Below, piece by piece: positions 9,527 through 63,894 of a stretch of DNA of 64,000 nucleotides. A program made the position numbers and the translations under genes. Source of the DNA: Candidatus Magasanikiibacteriota bacterium (GTDB taxonomy: Bacteria; Patescibacteriota; Patescibacteriia; Magasanikbacterales; GWA2-37-8). The DNA lies in NCBI GenBank assembly GCA_026396515.1, contig JAPLWQ010000002.1, forward strand, positions 193,230-257,229, read 5' to 3'. The first letter of the stretch is position 1. Each line of letters starts with the position of its first letter. A model generated the notes under the pieces. That model made no database searches. It saw only the letters and a program-made list of their open reading frames with translations, and was not told where the DNA came from.

Positions 9527-9576
9527 TCTTACCACTATAAATCATTTTCGGCATAAATACCCAAAATGATTTATAG

Positions 9577-9648
9577 AGCAGGTGAGCGGAATCGAACCGC
9601 CATCTTATCCTTGGCAAGGACATATACTAACCATTGTACTACACCTGC
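9577..9648 (-). tRNA. tRNA-Gly(GCC)
   Basis: Acceptor GCAGGTG/CACCTGC, anticodon loop TTGCCAA, T-arm GGCGG-TTCGATT-CCGCT. Confidence 0.85.
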
Positions 9649-9754
9649 AAAAAATAAATATCAATTTGTGCTTAACATTATAGTGTCCAAAGCCTTTTTT
9701 GTCAAGCGCGATGATACCCATAATCTACATAATTTGATATAATAGTAGCATCTT

Positions 9755-12382
9755 ATGAATTTCTATAAGCGTTTCCATAAACGCGAAAAAAAGCCATCTG
9801 ACCCGGCTTGCTATAGTGCAGCCGACCGGCCTTTTTTTACGTTTGCCAAAAAATCATCGCATGAAGTAATGAAAATATTAAAAAGTTCCGCTTCATCCGG
9901 CCTTTCCATTGCACAATCGCATACTCGACTGTTGAAATATGGCCGTAATGAAATTGTCCGGGAAAAACGCCGCTCATGGGTTGTTCTATTGCTAAAGAAC
10001 TTCAAAGACCCCTTAAGCGCTCTCTTAGTCGCTCTCGCCCTGATTTCCTATCTGACGCACGATATGAAGGCAACTATCATGATAGGTATCATGGTAGTAT
10101 TAAGCGTTTTTTTACGCTTCTACCAAGAAATTAAAGCCGACTTTGCGGCGCAAAAATTAAAAGCAATGGTGCGTACTGTGGCGCATGTTGTCCGAAAAAA
10201 TAAAATCAAAAAAATTCCATTTGAACGCTTAGTCCCCGGAGACATTATCCACTTATCGGCCGGAGATATGATCCCGGCCGATGTCCGGCTACTAGAGACA
10301 AACGGCTTGTATATTAATGAAGCTACTCTCACCGGCGAAGCTCTTCCGGCTGAAAAACACTCCCAACCGATTGCCACAGAGGCAAAAACTCCGCTCGAGC
10401 TTAACAATATCTGTTTTTTGGGCACCAATGTCGCCAGTGGTTCGGCAAAGGCCATCGTAATACTTACCGGTAGCCGGACATATTTGGGCTGCCTGGCAGA
10501 AAGTTTGGTGAAGCCGGAACCACCGACCACTTTTGATCTTGGTGTTAAAAAATTTACATGGCTGATAATGGGCTTAATTTTGGTGATGTCACCGGCGGTC
10601 TTTTTGATCAACGGATTTGCCCATCATCAATGGCTTGAAGCATTTTTATTTGCTATGGCTGTGGCAGTGGGGCTCGCTCCGGAAATGCTACCCATGATTG
10701 TCGCGGTTAACCTGTCCAAGGGCGCTTTGGTTATGTCAAAGAAAAAAGTAATTGTAAAACACCTTGATTCAATACAAAATTTTGGCGCCATGGATATTCT
10801 GTGTATGGACAAAACCGGCACTCTCACCGAGGGCAAAGTGGTGCTGGAAAAATATCTCAACATAAAAGGCGAGGAAGAACCGGCAGTGCTTGAATACGCA
10901 TTTTTAAACAGTTTTTTTCAGACTGGGCTAGAGAATCTTTTAGACGCCGCCGTACTTAAGCATAAAGATGTCGGCGTTAAACTAAAAATAAAAAGCGACT
11001 GGAAAAAAATTGATGAAATTCCATTTGATTTTATCAGGCGCCGCATGTCAGTGGTGATGGAAAACAAAGAAGGCGACCATTTATTAATATGTAAAGGAGC
11101 GGTGGAAGAAATTATTTCCCTTTCCTCACATGTCGATATCAACCATCATACGGAAGCATTCCACGCAGATACATATGAAAAACATTTAGGCATTGAGGAC
11201 AAAATGAACGACGGTGGGTTTCGCGTTGTCGGAGTAGCTTACAAAAAAATCCCCAATACTAAAACGAGATACTCTATAGCTGATGAGACAGGCATGACTC
11301 TTGTCGGATTTCTCGCTTTTCTCGACCCGCCCAAAGAAACGGCCAAGGTCTCTCTCAACGAACTGCGCGACAGCGGAATAACGGTGAAACTATTAACCGG
11401 CGATAATGAATTGGTGACCAGAAAAATTTGTCTTGACGTCGGCCTTGAGGCGACAGATATAGTGTTGGGTTCGGAAATTGAGGAAATGTCTGAAGAAGAA
11501 ATTAAAAAAATTGCCATAAAAATTAATATCTTCGCAAAGCTCACGCCAATGCAAAAAGAACAAATCGTTTCCGCTTTGCGCAGTGCCAACCACACTGTCG
11601 GATTTATGGGCGACGGTATAAACGACGCTCCGGCCTTACGTGGAGCGGATGTCGGCATATCAGTGGATACAGCCGTGGATATTGCCAAGGAATCCTCGGA
11701 CATTATTTTGTTGGAAAAGGATCTTTCAGTATTATACGAAGGCGTCCGTGAAGGCAGGCGCATCTTTGGGAACATCACCAAATATATCCAGATGTCGGCC
11801 AGCTCAAATTTTGGCAATATGTTCAGCGTGGTTGGCGGTAGTATTTTTCTTCCTTTTTTGCCGATGTTGCCAATCCAAATATTGGTGAATAATTTATTAT
11901 ACGACCTTTCCCAAACCACCATACCCACGGACAAGGTTGATGAGGAATATTTAAAAAAACCGCGGCAATGGCGTATCGACCATATTCGCCGGTTTATTAT
12001 GTTCATCGGTCCGGTTAGCTCCCTTTTCGATTACGCCACATTTTTTGTAATGCTTTTTGTCTTTAACACATGGCTTCATCCGTCCCTTTTCCAAACCGGC
12101 TGGTTTGTGGAATCGCTATTAAGCCAAACTCTAATTATTCACGTCATCAGAACAAATAAGATTCCCTTTATTCAGAGCCGCGCCTCCTGGCCGTTAATAG
12201 TAAGTACTGTGGGGATTTCGGCAATCGGTGTCGCATTGCCCTACTCTCCATTCGCCTCTTCATTAGGTTTTTCGCCCCTGCCTTTGTGGTATTGGCCAAT
12301 ACTAATCGCCATGTTATTTATTTATTTTTTTCTTACTCAAATGGTCAAGCGCTGGTTTGCAAAAAAGTATAGGATTGAATAG
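9755..12382 (+). CDS. Cation-transporting P-type ATPase (MgtA-like, Mg2+ importer type)
   Basis: 875 aa with DKTGTLT phosphorylation motif, TGES-like actuator, GDGINDAPAL hinge and about 10 TM helices. The true start may be an internal Met. Confidence 0.85.
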   Translation: MNFYKRFHKREKKPSDPACYSAADRPFFTFAKKSSHEVMKILKSSASSGLSIAQSHTRLLKYGRNEIVREKRRSWVVLLLKNFKDPLSALLVALALISYLTHDMKATIMIGIMVVLSVFLRFYQEIKADFAAQKLKAMVRTVAHVVRKNKIKKIPFERLVPGDIIHLSAGDMIPADVRLLETNGLYINEATLTGEALPAEKHSQPIATEAKTPLELNNICFLGTNVASGSAKAIVILTGSRTYLGCLAESLVKPEPPTTFDLGVKKFTWLIMGLILVMSPAVFLINGFAHHQWLEAFLFAMAVAVGLAPEMLPMIVAVNLSKGALVMSKKKVIVKHLDSIQNFGAMDILCMDKTGTLTEGKVVLEKYLNIKGEEEPAVLEYAFLNSFFQTGLENLLDAAVLKHKDVGVKLKIKSDWKKIDEIPFDFIRRRMSVVMENKEGDHLLICKGAVEEIISLSSHVDINHHTEAFHADTYEKHLGIEDKMNDGGFRVVGVAYKKIPNTKTRYSIADETGMTLVGFLAFLDPPKETAKVSLNELRDSGITVKLLTGDNELVTRKICLDVGLEATDIVLGSEIEEMSEEEIKKIAIKINIFAKLTPMQKEQIVSALRSANHTVGFMGDGINDAPALRGADVGISVDTAVDIAKESSDIILLEKDLSVLYEGVREGRRIFGNITKYIQMSASSNFGNMFSVVGGSIFLPFLPMLPIQILVNNLLYDLSQTTIPTDKVDEEYLKKPRQWRIDHIRRFIMFIGPVSSLFDYATFFVMLFVFNTWLHPSLFQTGWFVESLLSQTLIIHVIRTNKIPFIQSRASWPLIVSTVGISAIGVALPYSPFASSLGFSPLPLWYWPILIAMLFIYFFLTQMVKRWFAKKYRIE

Positions 12383-12417
12383 GCGTATTTGTTCGTTCTG
12401 CCTCTTCACCTAAGAAA

Positions 12418-12449
12418 ACAAAAACCGCCAAAGGCGGATTTTGTTTTTG
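12418..12449 (+). terminator. Intrinsic terminator after the ATPase gene
   Basis: AAAAACCGCC-AAA-GGCGGATTTTGTTTTT. Confidence 0.6.
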
Positions 12450-12498
12450 AGCTCCTTGGTAATAGACATTAGAACTATTTTGAGAGATAATTGCTGAC

Positions 12499-12538
12499 CT
12501 TATACCCTGTAGGACATTCACAATGTTCACAAGTTCAC
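12499..12538 (+). repeat. TTCAC-triplet motif, copy A
   Basis: CTTATACCCTGTAGgacaTTCACAATGTTCACAAGTTCAC. Near-identical copies at 14563-14602 and 62556-62596 in the same orientation. Confidence 0.7.
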
Positions 12539-12648
12539 GCCGTAGATTACTGTACCCAGACTTCAAACCACCCGGTAGGGGATATTAGGAGGTGGTTTGA
12601 TACTATTAAGGTAATTATGTGGCCAGCGATGGTGTAGAATTTTATATT

Positions 12649-13182
12649 CTATTTTTGGTTAAAGTTGTTTCTCATATACTGTGGCATTTCTATCGATATA
12701 TCTTCGACCATCCTTTTGGTCTTTTCTGCTACGGTATAAAACTGTTCCACTTTCAAAAAATGTTCCTTTAACTCCATTGTACATTCTTCAATAGTATTAT
12801 TAACGTAAGGTCGAAAAACTTCTGCGCTATCATTTAATTTCTGCACATCTTTACAGTCCCTGTCACTTTCAAAAAGCATTGCTGGAATTTTAGATTTTGT
12901 GAGCGATGCGGCGGTAGTTCGATGGTTACCGTCCAGTGCAAAATATTTTACTTGTGGGTGACTTTTTTCAAAATCCTTAAATTTTTTCTTAACTTTTTCG
13001 TCGAAAACAGCAGTCACCAACTCTTTAGGTAACACAATCACTCTGGCGATAATGTTAGCACAGCCTTTTTGAAAAATTCTAAAATACAATTTTAAAATTA
13101 CACCATCACCTTCCAATAAGTCGTGAATTGGATAGTCAATCATTGTCACAATTTCATTATCTGCTATTTCTAATAGTTTCAT
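12649..13182 (-). CDS. ParB/Srx-fold (ParB-like nuclease domain) protein
   Basis: 177 aa. YFALDGNHRTTAA...KIPAML resembles the ParB N-terminal/sulfiredoxin-fold DGHHR motif. Confidence 0.45.
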   Translation of the reverse strand: MKLLEIADNEIVTMIDYPIHDLLEGDGVILKLYFRIFQKGCANIIARVIVLPKELVTAVFDEKVKKKFKDFEKSHPQVKYFALDGNHRTTAASLTKSKIPAMLFESDRDCKDVQKLNDSAEVFRPYVNNTIEECTMELKEHFLKVEQFYTVAEKTKRMVEDISIEMPQYMRNNFNQK

Positions 13183-13397
13183 AAGAAATGTTTAATACCA
13201 TCATTCTAGCAAATTGTGGTTAAAAAAACTAGATGGGTTCGATTTCTCCTTGGGTCTTAACAAAAAACCCCGCTGTTTAAGCGAAGTTTTTCGGTGAGCT
13301 CGGTGGTAAATGATGTTAGAACTTGTTTGTGTCTGAATTGAAAGTTTAAACCCCTTGGGCAGGGATATTCGGCAGTAGTTTGAAGGCTTAAGCGGAT

Positions 13398-14480
13398 TTA
13401 AGGTCCTACCTTAGTTAAATATTCATGAAATTGACCGCTGGCTCCACCCAAACAAAATTCTAATTCATATGAATTTCCGCCCTTTAAAGGCCTATACGCA
13501 TATTGAAAATTGGTCGGGCAATTTCCGTCATTCGGTAAGGGAGTGCTGGGAATTTGTTGTAGATATACTACACCATCATTCGATAACTGTTTACCTATTT
13601 CTATTTTTTCCGGATACTTTCCATTATCTGTATAATACAGCTCAAGAGCAGTTTGTATCACTTTTATATCGCTAACTCTTTTGTGATCCCGGATTGCAGA
13701 TTCATCAATTACTACAGGTACTACGGGCTCTTTAGTTTGTATCGATTCAACCACAATGTCGGAATAAAATCTAAAAGTATTGTTTTTTTCTGCTCCCACT
13801 TTCCACGTTACATCATCGTATACAGGCTTACCATTTGATACTGGAATATTACACAATTTATTTATCTGAGTAGCGTAATCGGCATCAACCACAGGGATGC
13901 TCATACCTTTATCAATTGAAATCTCTACTAGAGTTTTATAATTTTTTTCTACATTAAAACCTGCGCCCTTAATATATTCATTAGCCTTTTTATGCAGTCT
14001 GTTACACTCATTAAAATCTATTTCTTTTATTCCATCGCAGCAACCATTATATTCAATATCGCAATGATCAGGATATTTTGCAGGCATGATATTGTCCGGT
14101 ATCTCATATTCATTCCCGGAGAAAATTATCTCCTTACTACCCATAAAATTTTTAATCTGGTTAATTTGCGATTGGCCAAGCTGAGTTATAAAATAAAATG
14201 TATTCCGCTCAGGATATGAAGGCATTTCTCTGAAAATTTTTCCATTCTGGCAAAAAATAAAGCGTTCTTCAGCTAATAACAACAACGGTTCTTTATCAGA
14301 GATTACGTATTTTTGTGGTGCGACGCAGTCAATTTCTTTGTTGTTCTCATCCACACAGACATTTAAATTATTGTATTCGGAGCTATTTAAGTCACTACGC
14401 CATTGAAAAAACTTAAATGTCCCAACAGAGGCAGCGATGAAAATAATTATCAAGATTACCGGCAATAATATTTTTTTCAT
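13398..14480 (-). CDS. Secreted Cys-rich protein with C-terminal pseudopilin (GspG-like) domain
   Basis: N-terminal signal/anchor helix but no G|FTLIE prepilin motif. C-terminus TALELYYTDNGKYPE...LSNDGVVYLQQIP...CPTNFQYAYRP resembles type II secretion/type IV pseudopilin globular domains. At least 12 Cys. Confidence 0.4.
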   Translation of the reverse strand: MKKILLPVILIIIFIAASVGTFKFFQWRSDLNSSEYNNLNVCVDENNKEIDCVAPQKYVISDKEPLLLLAEERFIFCQNGKIFREMPSYPERNTFYFITQLGQSQINQIKNFMGSKEIIFSGNEYEIPDNIMPAKYPDHCDIEYNGCCDGIKEIDFNECNRLHKKANEYIKGAGFNVEKNYKTLVEISIDKGMSIPVVDADYATQINKLCNIPVSNGKPVYDDVTWKVGAEKNNTFRFYSDIVVESIQTKEPVVPVVIDESAIRDHKRVSDIKVIQTALELYYTDNGKYPEKIEIGKQLSNDGVVYLQQIPSTPLPNDGNCPTNFQYAYRPLKGGNSYELEFCLGGASGQFHEYLTKVGP

Positions 14481-14562
14481 ACGTAATGTTCAAAAATAAA
14501 GTAGTATGTACTTCCGTATAAGACAATTCTATCATTGCTTGGATATAAAAACAACGACATTA

Positions 14563-14602
14563 AGGCCGCTGTCTTATACCCTGTAGAACGTTCACAATGT
14601 TC
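14563..14602 (+). repeat. TTCAC-triplet motif, copy B
   Basis: CTTATACCCTGTAGaacgTTCACAATGTTCACAAGTTCAC. Directly abuts a 16-nt duplicate of the tRNA-Gly(TCC) 3' end (GAGCGGGCAACGGGAA, 14604-14620). Confidence 0.7.
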
Positions 14603-14615
14603 ACAAGTTCACCCG

Positions 14616-14746
14616 AGCGGGCAACGGGAAATCTCACGCGGCGCTACGCGCCTTTCACGAAAGGGCTTCCGCCCTCTCGTGAACTCTCCCCCACAATAGC
14701 GGGAAAACCGCCAAGCAGTTTTCCCAAACCCTTTCGGTTCGATTCC
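14616..14746 (+). repeat. tRNA-associated structured element, copy 3
   Basis: GGGAAATCTCAC...GGTTCGATTCCC termini. Three hairpins (GCGGCGC-TAC-GCGCC, CACGAAAGGGC-TTC-CGCCCTCTCGTG, GGGAAAAC-CGCCAAGCA-GTTTTCCC) with compensatory changes versus copies 1 and 2. Confidence 0.6.
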
Positions 14747-14794
14747 CGTCCGATATAATAAAATAATCCCACGGATTCGGGATTATTTTATTAG

Positions 14795-14866
14795 AGCGGG
14801 CAACGGGAATCGAACCCGTATCACCAGTTTGGAAAACTGGAATAATAGCCGTTATATTATGCCCGC
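14795..14866 (-). tRNA. tRNA-Gly(TCC)
   Basis: Acceptor GCGGGCA/TGCCCGC, anticodon loop TTTCCAA, T-arm ACGGG-TTCGATT-CCCGT, discriminator T. Confidence 0.85.
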
Positions 14867-15035
14867 AACGAGTGGAAACCGAGAATAAATTCTCGGTTTT
14901 CCGAGCAAGGGCATTATATACCTAAGTATATTATGCCCGCGAAATTGACATATGAATTGTGGTGATATCTTACAAAAATACTTCCGATTAGTCAATATTC
15001 AACAATAGTAAATAATTTGATATAATGATACTAAT

Positions 15036-15329
15036 ATGATTGAAATCATCTTAACCCCAATTCACTGGGCTGTGATTATTTACCTCACCACCATCAACCT
15101 GGTCACTTTCTTTGTTTATGGCCTTGATAAGGCAAAATCCGGAGTTTCAGGCGCAAGACGTATCAGCGAAAAGACACTGCTCATCATCGCCCTCATCGGT
15201 GGCTCTTTAGGCGCACTCGCCGGAATGAAAGTCTTTCGTCACAAGACAAAAAAGCTTGGTTTCCAGGCACCACTGGCCGTAATATTGTGCCTCCAAATAT
15301 TTCTTGTCTGGTTTTTATTTTTCCGCTAA
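15036..15329 (+). CDS. DUF1294-family small membrane protein
   Basis: 97 aa, GLDKAKSGVSGARRISEKTLLIIALIGGSLGALAGMKVFRHKTKK. Confidence 0.55.
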   Translation: MIEIILTPIHWAVIIYLTTINLVTFFVYGLDKAKSGVSGARRISEKTLLIIALIGGSLGALAGMKVFRHKTKKLGFQAPLAVILCLQIFLVWFLFFR

Positions 15330-62421: not shown

Positions 62422-62555
62422 TTTGCTTATTGAGGAGGGAATATTCTCTGACAGCGGCAGTAGCCATTGTCGGTTTTTTGTTGGTAGATCACTGTACTCA
62501 GACTTTAAACCCCATTATGCTGGATTTGAGACGGTGGATGGAGGGAATACCCTTG

Positions 62556-62596
62556 CTTAATACCCTGTAGGTGGTTCACAATGTTCACTTGTTCAC
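62556..62596 (+). repeat. TTCAC-triplet motif, copy C
   Basis: CTTAATACCCTGTAGgtggTTCACAATGTTCACTTGTTCAC. Confidence 0.65.
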
Positions 62597-62724: not shown

Positions 62725-63222
62725 TTACTCCCACCAATTAATAGTTCTGTATATAAATTCAAAAGATATAATCTTTCTATCCTTAGCATAGCGTTCAATA
62801 TCCTTATCTTTCATGTGCCAGGAATAGGTGTTTTTGCCTTTACGCTGTAAAGCCAGCAAATGTTTCAGCGACAGAATATAACAATAAATTTTTTCGCCAG
62901 CGTCAATCACCAAAGCAAAATAAGGTTTGCATTTGAACGCTTTACAGGCCTTTTTGATTTTCCTGAAATTGTCGTTATCTATGCTTAACGGCGTTCCTTC
63001 CTTGCCGACATTCCGGCTTCTGCCTTTAACAGAAATGCCTATCACTTCTTTTGAACGCAGCCTTCGGGCAATAATATCAATGCCGGTATGGTCTATGATG
63101 GCGCATTCAAAGCCATATTTGGAAAGCCAATAGCGGATAATATTTTCACAAAAATCACCGGTAATCTTGGCATGCCTTGAACTTTTTTTAAGCTTCATAT
63201 TATCTAAAAACCCGCCGAACAT
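62725..63222 (-). CDS. Hypothetical protein, possibly restriction-endonuclease-like (PD-(D/E)xK-type) fold
   Basis: 165 aa. GIDIIARRLRSKEVIGISVKG resembles Hjc/Mrr-type catalytic cores. The weak, spaced D/E/K pattern is the only basis. Confidence 0.3.
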   Translation of the reverse strand: MFGGFLDNMKLKKSSRHAKITGDFCENIIRYWLSKYGFECAIIDHTGIDIIARRLRSKEVIGISVKGRSRNVGKEGTPLSIDNDNFRKIKKACKAFKCKPYFALVIDAGEKIYCYILSLKHLLALQRKGKNTYSWHMKDKDIERYAKDRKIISFEFIYRTINWWE

Positions 63223-63585: not shown

Positions 63586-63894
63586 ATGCTTAGTGCTTTG
63601 GAAGATAGCCAAATACAGACAAGTCGGAGCGGAGCTGGAAAGGGGGTTGAAAGAACTGAGGACATTAGCCGAGACATAATGTTTAAAAGGAAATTCAAGG
63701 AATATTTTAATGATGCCGAGCTAGTAGAATTGCTAGCGTCGGTTAAGACGCAGGCTAAAGTGAATCCTGCAATGTTGAAGTTCTGCTTAGAACAAATATT
63801 TGGTCGTGCTCCTCAACGGGAGAAGGATTCAAATGACGAACAAGCCCGGATGCAGATGGCTCGGATAGAGGATTATATGAAAAAATTTTTTTGA
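63586..63894 (+). CDS. Hypothetical protein
   Basis: 102-aa ORF, no recognisable family. Confidence 0.3.
   Translation: MLSALEDSQIQTSRSGAGKGVERTEDISRDIMFKRKFKEYFNDAELVELLASVKTQAKVNPAMLKFCLEQIFGRAPQREKDSNDEQARMQMARIEDYMKKFF

Follow-up and report, generated by a model that had tools for sequence, protein, structure and literature searches.

The 64,000-nt stretch of DNA analysed here (the window) comes from a 328,883-bp contig in a metagenome-assembled genome (MAG) of Candidatus Magasanikbacteria and carries, between a gene for an Mg2+ P-type ATPase (MgtA) and a tRNA-Gly(UCC) gene, two genes bracketed by direct copies of a 40-nt motif with three TTCAC repeats. What is this motif, and how did the segment that it brackets come to lie beside the tRNA gene? 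By itself the locus is a fairly ordinary islet: two foreign genes inserted as a small segment next to a tRNA gene of an ultra-small bacterium from the candidate phyla radiation (CPR). An earlier examination made without database searches (hereafter the sequence-only reading) took the TTCAC repeats for likely arm-type recombinase or regulator binding sites, and the direct copies around the genes for a sign of a decayed or satellite integrative island. Comparison with public loci and with relatives of the host, which are designated by L numbers below, leads to a different assignment. The TTCAC triplet is probably a replication-initiator iteron block of the P4-type class and not an integrase arm site, and it is predicted to be bound by a primase-helicase initiator (Rep). 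Initiator iterons of P4-like primase-helicase replicons are known; what is unusual is their orphan, unit-terminal form, which recurs in CPR genomes. With a probability of roughly 0.55, we read the segment as a stack of helper-dependent or decayed mini-elements, each ending in an iteron block, that accreted at tRNA-Gly.

The two bracketing copies (copies A and B; repeat family D1) are identical at 38/40 positions in direct orientation and conform to the consensus CTTATACCCTGTAG-n4-TTCACAATGTTCACAAGTTCAC, just as the sequence-only reading had described them; it located copy A correctly and copy B 10 nt too low, at 14563-14602 instead of 14573-14612. The right 22 nt of the motif, TTCACAATGTTCACAAGTTCAC, contain the triplet, whose three TTCAC repeats had been called evenly spaced. 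All three are present, and their spacing is nearly but not exactly even: in copy A they start at 12517, 12526 and 12534, which gives intervals of 9 and then 8 nt. At three or fewer mismatches, 0.00 chance matches to the 22-mer are expected (100 shuffles). A third copy on the plus strand, copy C, matches the triplet at 20/22 positions and the left part at 12/14. TTCAC repeats with a GTTCAC core, a few nucleotides apart, are present in copies A, B and C, and alignment of the three sites confines their likeness to the 40-mer, ending exactly after GTTCAC. The three copies keep 35-38 of 40 positions while the flanking DNA is unrelated throughout, a near-identity that argues for constraint or for recent arrival.

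All window copies lie on the plus strand in a scan that allowed up to five mismatches, and a search of the window at the same tolerance found no inverted partner set. The inverted-repeat list contains no dyad internal to the 40-mer, the promoter scan places no sigma-70-like hexamer pair over any copy, and Rfam, consulted over 12380-15040 at the gathering cut-off and at E<=10, has no match for the motif or for the structured spacer beside the tRNA gene. A literature search on the literal motif sequence returned chance primer matches only. Two gene ends converge on copy A. Copy B ends 2 nt from a perfect 16-nt copy of the tRNA-Gly(UCC) 3' end, in agreement with the adjacency first noticed from the sequence.

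Beyond this genome, the 22-mer is widespread. An exact-pattern scan of one genome per species, in which 20 fixed bases would match about once by chance over 1.2e12 positions, found it in 17 genome loci, and a slightly degenerate pattern occurs in 117 metagenome stretches, for 134 public loci in all; viral contigs gave zero exact matches. Its hosts include Paceibacterota, Saccharibacteria, Staskawiczbacteria and Taylorbacteria within the CPR, together with Chloroflexia, Zixibacteria, Acidobacteriaceae and one Woesearchaeota bin, and GC content across the motif loci runs from 0.29 to 0.69. Only the 22-mer is common to the public loci. The left 18 nt of the window copies are lineage-specific, with close versions in L045 and L004, and the independent metagenome contig L045 holds a near-identical 40-mer.

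The genes that accompany the motif point to a role in replication. When all open reading frames (ORFs) within 5 kb of the motif were clustered, the dominant cluster (cluster 0) was a primase-helicase family present at 39 loci, with either PrimPol and PriCT_1 or DnaG-zinc-ribbon and Toprim N-termini and a common P-loop C-terminal half. Two further helicase families occur at 8 and 4 loci, one of them with RepB_primase, D5_N and DUF5906 domains. A motif copy lies between -120 and +450 nt from the 3' end of the primase-helicase gene in 48 of the 51 loci that have such a gene. Read in the direction of that gene, the rep-linked loci usually have GTGAACnnGTGAACrttGTGAAC, followed after 75-130 nt by TTCACaayGTTCACnnGTTCAC; the sets are as a rule inverted, and extra GTGAAC pairs are often present. 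The first iteron set is sometimes found inside the last rep codons, where it is read as VNVVN, so that origin and initiator C-terminus overlap. Triplets within the rep 3' codons, with a conserved ..(E/Q)VNVVN.. tail, were seen in L013 (957-978), L034 (about 6036), L050, L059, L110 and L136. At loci lacking rep, the GTTCAC end of the block faces a gene 3' end 38 times and a gene 5' end 25 times.

An equivalent arrangement is annotated in the satellite phage P4, the precedent that has been characterised. GenBank record X51522 marks 'ori type 1 repeats' in both the origin (ori) and the cis replication region (crr); the crr, which lies about 190 nt from the core of the phage attachment site (attP), starts 46 nt past the 3' end of the alpha primase-helicase gene and contains two direct copies, 9 nt apart, of the type 1 repeats, TGTTCACC/GGTGAACA. 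The arm repeats of the P4 integrase are ATGCCCCCA-like and unrelated to GTTCAC. Alpha, with Toprim, D5_N, DUF5906 and Pox_D5 domains, reportedly binds the type 1 repeats. The helicase family of L074 (RepB_primase, D5_N and DUF5906, with a motif pair at the 3' end of its gene) is a BLAST homologue of alpha (E 1e-13). The main Rep family was also considered as a homologue and rejected: BLAST and hhalign match the Walker A stretch only, and a search of PDB sequences gave nothing. Because the likeness of the main family stops at Walker A, homology to alpha is claimed for the D5_N family only. We favour Rep iterons since the motif lies beside the 3' end of initiator genes and since its core sequence and position match those of the P4 type 1 repeats. 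The distribution over 134 loci and the place at the rep 3' end in 48/51 do not bear out an arm-type recombinase or regulator site specific to this island.

What kind of element owns the motif? Large serine recombinases with Resolvase, Recombinase and Zn_ribbon_recom domains are encoded at 15 motif loci, and the 3' end of the recombinase gene abuts or overlaps a tRNA gene for Glu in L008, Asp in L011 and Trp in L013. Tyrosine integrases occur in L002 and L016, the latter locus encoding a P4-type protein (Arm-DNA-bind_3/Phage_int_M/Phage_integrase) and a DUF3987 helicase. In L109 the element is bounded by repeats of a tRNA-Thr 3' end about 8.4 kb apart, with the motif pair in mid-element. The motif tracks rep genes whether the recombinase is of the serine or the tyrosine type. 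The elements that own it are tRNA-targeting integrative elements with a replication module of their own, the general type to which P4, phage-inducible chromosomal islands and tycheposons also belong.

Synteny supports the view that what separates the ATPase gene from the tRNA-Gly region in the window is an insertion. In L139, a sister Magasanikbacteria genome with an MgtA 82% identical and equal gene order on both sides, the MgtA terminator is followed by a 16-nt copy of that genome's own tRNA-Gly 3' end, a GC-rich spacer of about 175 nt, a terminator and tRNA-Gly(UCC); the motif and both bracketed genes (ORF1 and ORF2) are absent from the site. Because the L139 terminator directly abuts the tRNA 3'-end copy, positions 12449-14614 (2,166 nt) of the window are an insertion, and the tRNA-adjacent site is polymorphic for presence and absence with both flanks kept. 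The tRNA 3'-end copy and the structured spacer exist in L139 without the island; both therefore predate it. GC content is 0.33-0.37 in the island versus 0.42-0.47 in the flanks. A second relative, L140, has other genes at the site, including one for a GIY-YIG protein. Exact-protein look-ups for variants of the source genome returned the same genome only, from two Logan runs.

These comparisons uphold the sequence-only reading in one respect, that of an island without its own integrase next to a tRNA gene: it is absent in L139, and so not conserved in all relatives between the ATPase gene and tRNA-Gly, and tblastn found no integrase, serine recombinase, P4-type or other tyrosine integrase, or primase-helicase in the 64-kb window. 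That the direct repeats were produced by the integration is not supported. The insertion junctions have only GAGC in common, copy A begins 50 nt inside the left junction, and the third copy of the motif lies 48 kb away. Coordinates of the features are collected in Table 1.

Table 1. Features of the insertion site beside tRNA-Gly and of the third motif site (window coordinates; a point marks features listed without a strand).
Feature	Position	Strand	Remarks
Mg2+ P-type ATPase gene (MgtA), convergent	9755-12382		Owns the terminator hairpin at 12415-12447
Bidirectional terminator hairpin	12415-12447	.	Inverted repeat I9 and terminator hits on both strands; left chromosomal flank
Module copy 1 (GAGCTCCTTGGTAATAGACATTAGAAC)	12449-12475	+	Insertion starts here; in CPR arrays, accompanies the iteron block as a cis-element
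Copy A	12499-12538	+	Lineage-specific 18-nt left part and 22-nt TTCAC triplet (12517-12538)
R-part copy A (GTAGATTACTGTACCCAGACTTCAAACC and hairpin)	12542-12600	+	Proposed left end of the gene-carrying unit
ORF1	12649-13182	-	177 aa; cargo gene; ParB/Srx-like fold (plausible); DGNHR motif
Module copy 2 (GAGCTCGGTGGTAAATGATGTTAGAAC)	13296-13322	+	After terminator-like hairpin 13264-13295; R-part-like tail 13345-13387 next
ORF2	13398-14480	-	360 aa; cargo gene; N-terminal hydrophobic segment; Cys-rich
Copy B	14573-14612	+	Left part and TTCAC triplet (14591-14612); forms the right end of the insertion
16-nt perfect copy of the tRNA-Gly(UCC) 3' end	14615-14630	-	Repeat D5; equals 14794-14809
GC-rich structured spacer (to ~14749) and terminator hairpin (14750-14799)	14631-14793	.	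Not part of the island
tRNA-Gly(UCC)	14794-14866	-	
Third site	62484-62596	+	R-part copy C (62484-62511), then iteron block copy C (62557-62596)
ORF next to copy C	62725-63222	-	
ORF next to copy C	63586-63894	+	

Two further sequences accompany the iteron block. The first, which we call the module, has the pattern GAGCTCnnnGGTAAnnGAYRTTAGAAC and occurs twice in the window versus 0 expected; its copies match at 21/27 positions (p<0.0005), and both lie immediately 3' of a terminator hairpin. It is related to motif-adjacent sequences of L004 and L017 (p<=0.002), module-related sequences accompany the TTCAC block in L004, L007, L017 and L022, and the module directly follows the motif in L007, L004, L053 and L089. 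The surroundings of module copy 2 resemble region A minus the iteron block. The module also holds a near-palindrome, GTTAGAAC/GTTCGAAC. Its interpretation as a decayed tRNA-Gly 3' half was dropped after a shuffle test (p 0.58 and 0.96).

The second sequence, the R-part, has its core at 12542-12569 and recurs once, at the third site, versus 0 expected. At the corresponding position L149 and L150 carry a gene of about 985 aa right after a metallophosphoesterase gene. The window keeps the first ~55 nt of this gene (62422-62483), followed by the R-part, copy C and unrelated minus-strand ORFs, and the break in synteny with the relatives begins exactly at the first base of R-part copy C. Given the insertion status at A and B and the synteny break at C, all three motif copies stand at borders of lineage-specific DNA. 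The sequence-only reading was to be refuted by motif copies at many intergenic sites without paired gene blocks. In part this is the case: the motif does occur elsewhere, but those sites too are synteny breaks or variable gene blocks. The far end of the variable region at the third site lies past the window edge. The two ORFs listed beside copy C are lineage-specific genes; neither has a PHROGs or NCBIfam match, and Pfam gave none for 62725-63222, the one ORF of the two that was scanned.

Parallel arrays occur in other CPR genomes. At several loci single same-strand motif copies 0.4-2.9 kb apart separate 1-3 accessory genes, usually beside a tRNA gene. The Saccharibacteria loci L006 and L007 have four copies, the last of them 2 nt from tRNA-Asn; an array in L015 is located at tRNA-Glu; L017 and L005 have 3-4 copies in a conserved block of about 200 nt that ends at GTTCAC; and further arrays are found in L108/L067 and L128. 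The distance from motif to tRNA-Glu is 4-5 nt in L031 and L063. The junction formed by copy B, in which the iteron block is followed after 2-5 nt by a tRNA 3' end, is found again in L006 (Asn), L031 (Glu) and L063 (Glu), and homology in L017 stops exactly after GTTCAC, as it does in the three window copies. If 12449-14614 were excised as one segment, copy B, CC and the GAGCTCC-module would be joined, in the same order as at the intact motif-GAGCTCC-module junctions of L007 and L004. The L007 junction, CAAGTTCAC-GAGCTC-CGAACTTG, is an inverted repeat around a palindrome. No gene near the window motif copies is shared with the five other arrays compared.

Contigs that start or end within about 100 nt of the motif include L006 (position 25), L007 (10), L040, L065, L067 (5), L080 (27) and L106 (30), which suggests that the assemblies break at a repeated or population-variable junction. 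In another CPR-like genome (L108 2690-5487 and L067 52-2979) a motif-bounded unit has a pair of genes of about 320 aa and 640 aa. The pair looks defence-like, and the SIR2-type resemblance of the N-terminus was judged by eye only.

We propose that the triplet represents three initiator iterons with a GTTCAC core, of the kind bound by the primase-helicase (Rep) of integrative mobile elements. In autonomous elements the block is placed at the 3' end of rep, in two inverted sets with about 75-130 nt between them. In this genome only single same-strand blocks remain, each with the 18-nt lineage-specific extension, and each would form the right-hand terminus of a small unit without rep or integrase. 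The first unit would be an empty one of about 90 nt (12449-12538) that ends in copy A; the second, of about 2.07 kb (12542-14612), would carry ORF1 and ORF2 and end in copy B. Both would be stacked between the MgtA terminator and the pre-existing copy of the tRNA-Gly 3' end, and the motif copies would be the elements' own conserved end modules, not a target duplication. Insertion may have been of the Campbell type, from small circles whose attachment region directly adjoined the iteron block, each newcomer being added beside those already there.

If still active, such units would need a helper element that supplies both recombinase and Rep. A candidate for the type of helper is found in the sister genome L140, where a DnaG-zinc-ribbon primase, a 515-aa helicase and a large serine recombinase are encoded upstream of MgtA (5772-9683) and the last codons of the recombinase gene, at its 3' end, overlap tRNA-Met. 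The tRNA-Met site of the window (9325-9398) is empty, versus occupied in L140. A scan of the L140 tRNA-Met element found no TTCAC block within five mismatches.

Several points weigh against this scheme. The window copies are single and have no inverted partner, and therefore may not work as origins. For all these Rep proteins, binding to the motif is predicted from comparison of sequences; cluster 0, the largest Rep family, has no detectable similarity to P4 alpha beyond the Walker A region, and the repeats are spaced 9 and 8 nt apart in the window versus 10-11 nt in the P4 ori. The block lies 2-5 nt from tRNA 3' ends, exactly at unit termini in the CPR arrays, which a role as a recombination site fits at least equally well. 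Simple tandem integration does not explain why the R-part follows copy A at 12.5 kb but precedes copy C at 62.5 kb, and it leaves the motif-less module at 13296 unexplained. As the module is not significantly tRNA-like, the attachment-site (att) logic comes down to the 4-nt GAGC overlap. Finally, a single island-less relative was found, and a deletion in L139 in place of an insertion in the window may, formally, account for the difference.

The proximity of the block to tRNA 3' ends leads directly to the first alternative, in which the TTCAC block is the recombination site, or half of the site, of a cassette system. A site-specific recombinase acting in trans would capture units successively at a tRNA 3' end, by analogy with attC/attI in integrons, and the blocks beside rep genes would be where autonomous elements keep their own site. 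Blocks 2-5 nt from intact tRNA 3' ends (L006, L031, L063) and 2 nt from the tRNA-Gly 3' copy of the window are what this alternative predicts, as are homology that ends exactly at GTTCAC, direct arrays that separate 1-3-gene units, the inverted repeat around GAGCTC at the L007 junction and the several contigs that break at the motif. It does not predict that 48 of the 51 loci with rep should have the block at the 3' end of that gene, nor that the motif pair of L109 should sit in mid-element while tRNA-Thr 3'-end repeats form the ends. No single recombinase family co-occurs with the block, as 15 loci have large serine recombinases and L002 and L016 tyrosine integrases; the P4 repeats with the same core are replication sites, distinct from the integrase arm sites; and attC and the att sites of serine integrases are dyads, whereas the block is a direct triplet. 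We consider this alternative unlikely, if worth keeping in mind.

About equally improbable, in our judgement, is that the blocks are inert debris, leftover origin fragments of elements that integrated and were later deleted, with neither function nor mobility now. The missing inverted partner set, the lack of rep and integrase genes throughout 64 kb, and the loss of the block from the module at 13296 would all follow, and the empty units of 90 nt (12449-12538) and 113 nt (62484-62596) look like deletion remnants. Decay does not readily explain why three copies retain 35-38 of 40 positions amid unrelated flanking DNA, why distant phyla share the 22-mer unchanged or nearly so, a point in favour of constraint or very recent arrival, or why a near-identical 40-mer is found in the independent contig L045.

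A more ambitious version would join the iteron and recombination roles. CPR bacteria, and possibly others, would capture block-ended cassettes lacking rep and integrase one by one at tRNA 3' ends, in the manner of integrons; serine-recombinase/primase-helicase helpers would excise, replicate and move them in trans, and the block would be both origin and part of the recombination site. We regard this as speculative and give it slightly less credence than either alternative above.

The genes carried by the insertion bear on a last alternative. Exactly two ORFs, both on the minus strand, lie between copies A and B, as had been read from the sequence. ORF1 (locus tag NTW66_01515) had been taken for a ParB/Srx-fold protein: Pfam, PHROGs and NCBIfam have no family match for it, and of five models built from 21 homologues one was confident (pLDDT 81.7), whose top Foldseek matches are all to ParB, Noc, KorB or sulfiredoxin at weak E values of 5e-3 to 0.1. 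The predicted ParB/Srx fold is plausible. Homologues of ORF1 with 60-82% identity occur at unrelated loci of other CPR genomes, as expected for cargo. A link between ORF1 and the motif was rejected, the seven other loci with homologues having no motif, module or tRNA nearby. The pseudopilin-like domain claimed for ORF2 corresponds to one sub-threshold T2SSG match (residues 267-318, E 0.0023, 18.4 bits versus a cut-off of 21). Neither ORF has integrase or recombinase domains. It is very improbable that the motif serves ORF1 as a parS-like site, or the host as a promoter element or transcription-factor operator: direct hexamer repeats do resemble response-regulator boxes, GTTCAC resembles the parS half-site TGTTTCAC and ORF1 has a ParB/Srx-like fold, but no sigma-70-like hexamer pair covers any copy, copy A lies between convergent gene ends, the GTTCAC end at non-rep loci is turned to gene 3' ends 38 times and to 5' ends 25 times, ORF1 homologues elsewhere do without the motif, and the five other arrays compared share no gene with the motif neighbourhood of the window.

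Some features of the tRNA-Gly neighbourhood stand apart from the insertion. In both the window and L139, partial copies of tRNA-Gly(UCC) flank the gene, 16 nt of its 3' end being repeated downstream and 14 nt of its 5' end upstream; the 14-nt match pairs 14853-14866 with 14927-14940 in the window, and the corresponding stretches of L139 are 12511-12715 and about 12847-12861. Each partial copy matches the tRNA-Gly of its own genome, and the copies therefore co-vary with the gene. The structured spacer, with folding z-scores of -7.0 and -6.0, could be a small RNA without an Rfam match, a processing element or an old mini-insertion; consensus folding with its L139 counterpart was uninformative, with two sequences only.

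The iteron reading, if correct, makes the 22-nt sequence TTCACAAYGTTCACNNGTTCAC a marker for the origins of widespread, poorly annotated primase-helicase integrative elements, in a group that would span E. coli P4 relatives, CPR bacteria, Chloroflexi, Acidobacteria and Zixibacteria. The arrays also show that small accessory-gene units gather at tRNA genes in tiny CPR genomes and retain only this marker. Should these units be mobilisable, they would rank with the most minimal hitch-hiking elements known and would offer a route of gene flow in organisms with few recognisable mobile elements. Should they be relics, the islet is an ordinary one, and the lesson for annotation is that an island may be flanked by short direct repeats that are not att sites.

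P4 is one of the closest known systems. It has the GTTCAC core, sets in both orientations, a crr directly 3' of the primase-helicase gene and close to attP, and an element that integrates at a tRNA gene, and the 9-nt distance between direct copies in its crr is comparable with the spacing in the window. Unlike P4, the window has no alpha-like gene and single blocks only, with repeats 9/8 nt apart in place of the 10-11 nt of the P4 ori; the elements that own the motif often use large serine recombinases and not a P4-type tyrosine integrase, and the Rep family most commonly associated with it has no similarity to alpha beyond the P-loop. The origins of Staphylococcus aureus pathogenicity islands and phage-inducible chromosomal islands (SaPI/PICI), in which iteron sets flank an AT-rich spacer 3' of the rep primase-helicase gene, resemble the two sets around a 75-130 nt spacer at the rep-linked loci, and these islands likewise live as small tRNA- or site-specific integrative elements. 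SaPI iterons are said to be Rep-specific. The iteron sequences differ, however, and the window, without a rep gene, would have only half of such an origin.

The units themselves invite comparison with other recombinase-less gene blocks. Cis-mobilizable elements (CIMEs), the att-flanked, integrase-less derivatives of integrative and conjugative or integrative and mobilizable elements (ICE/IME) that move through accretion, are likewise gene blocks at an integration hot spot, plausibly mobilisable with a helper only. CIMEs are reportedly defined by two functional att sites, whereas the window junctions have GAGC alone in common. Integron cassettes also form arrays of 1-3-gene units with a conserved same-strand end site and no recombinase inside the units; here, by contrast, there is no intI or attI, the site is a direct triplet and not an imperfect palindrome with R''/L''-L'/R' boxes, genes point either way with respect to the site, and the site has a second home at replication genes. 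Tycheposons, found in Prochlorococcus, target tRNA genes with tyrosine or large serine recombinases and carry primase/helicase genes; their successive integrations move older elements inward and leave degenerated remnants, identifiable from their partial tRNAs (Hackl et al., bioRxiv 10.1101/2020.12.28.424599). By contrast, the arrays described here belong to CPR bacteria, an iteron block serves as their marker, and at 0.09-2.9 kb their units are much smaller than tycheposons.

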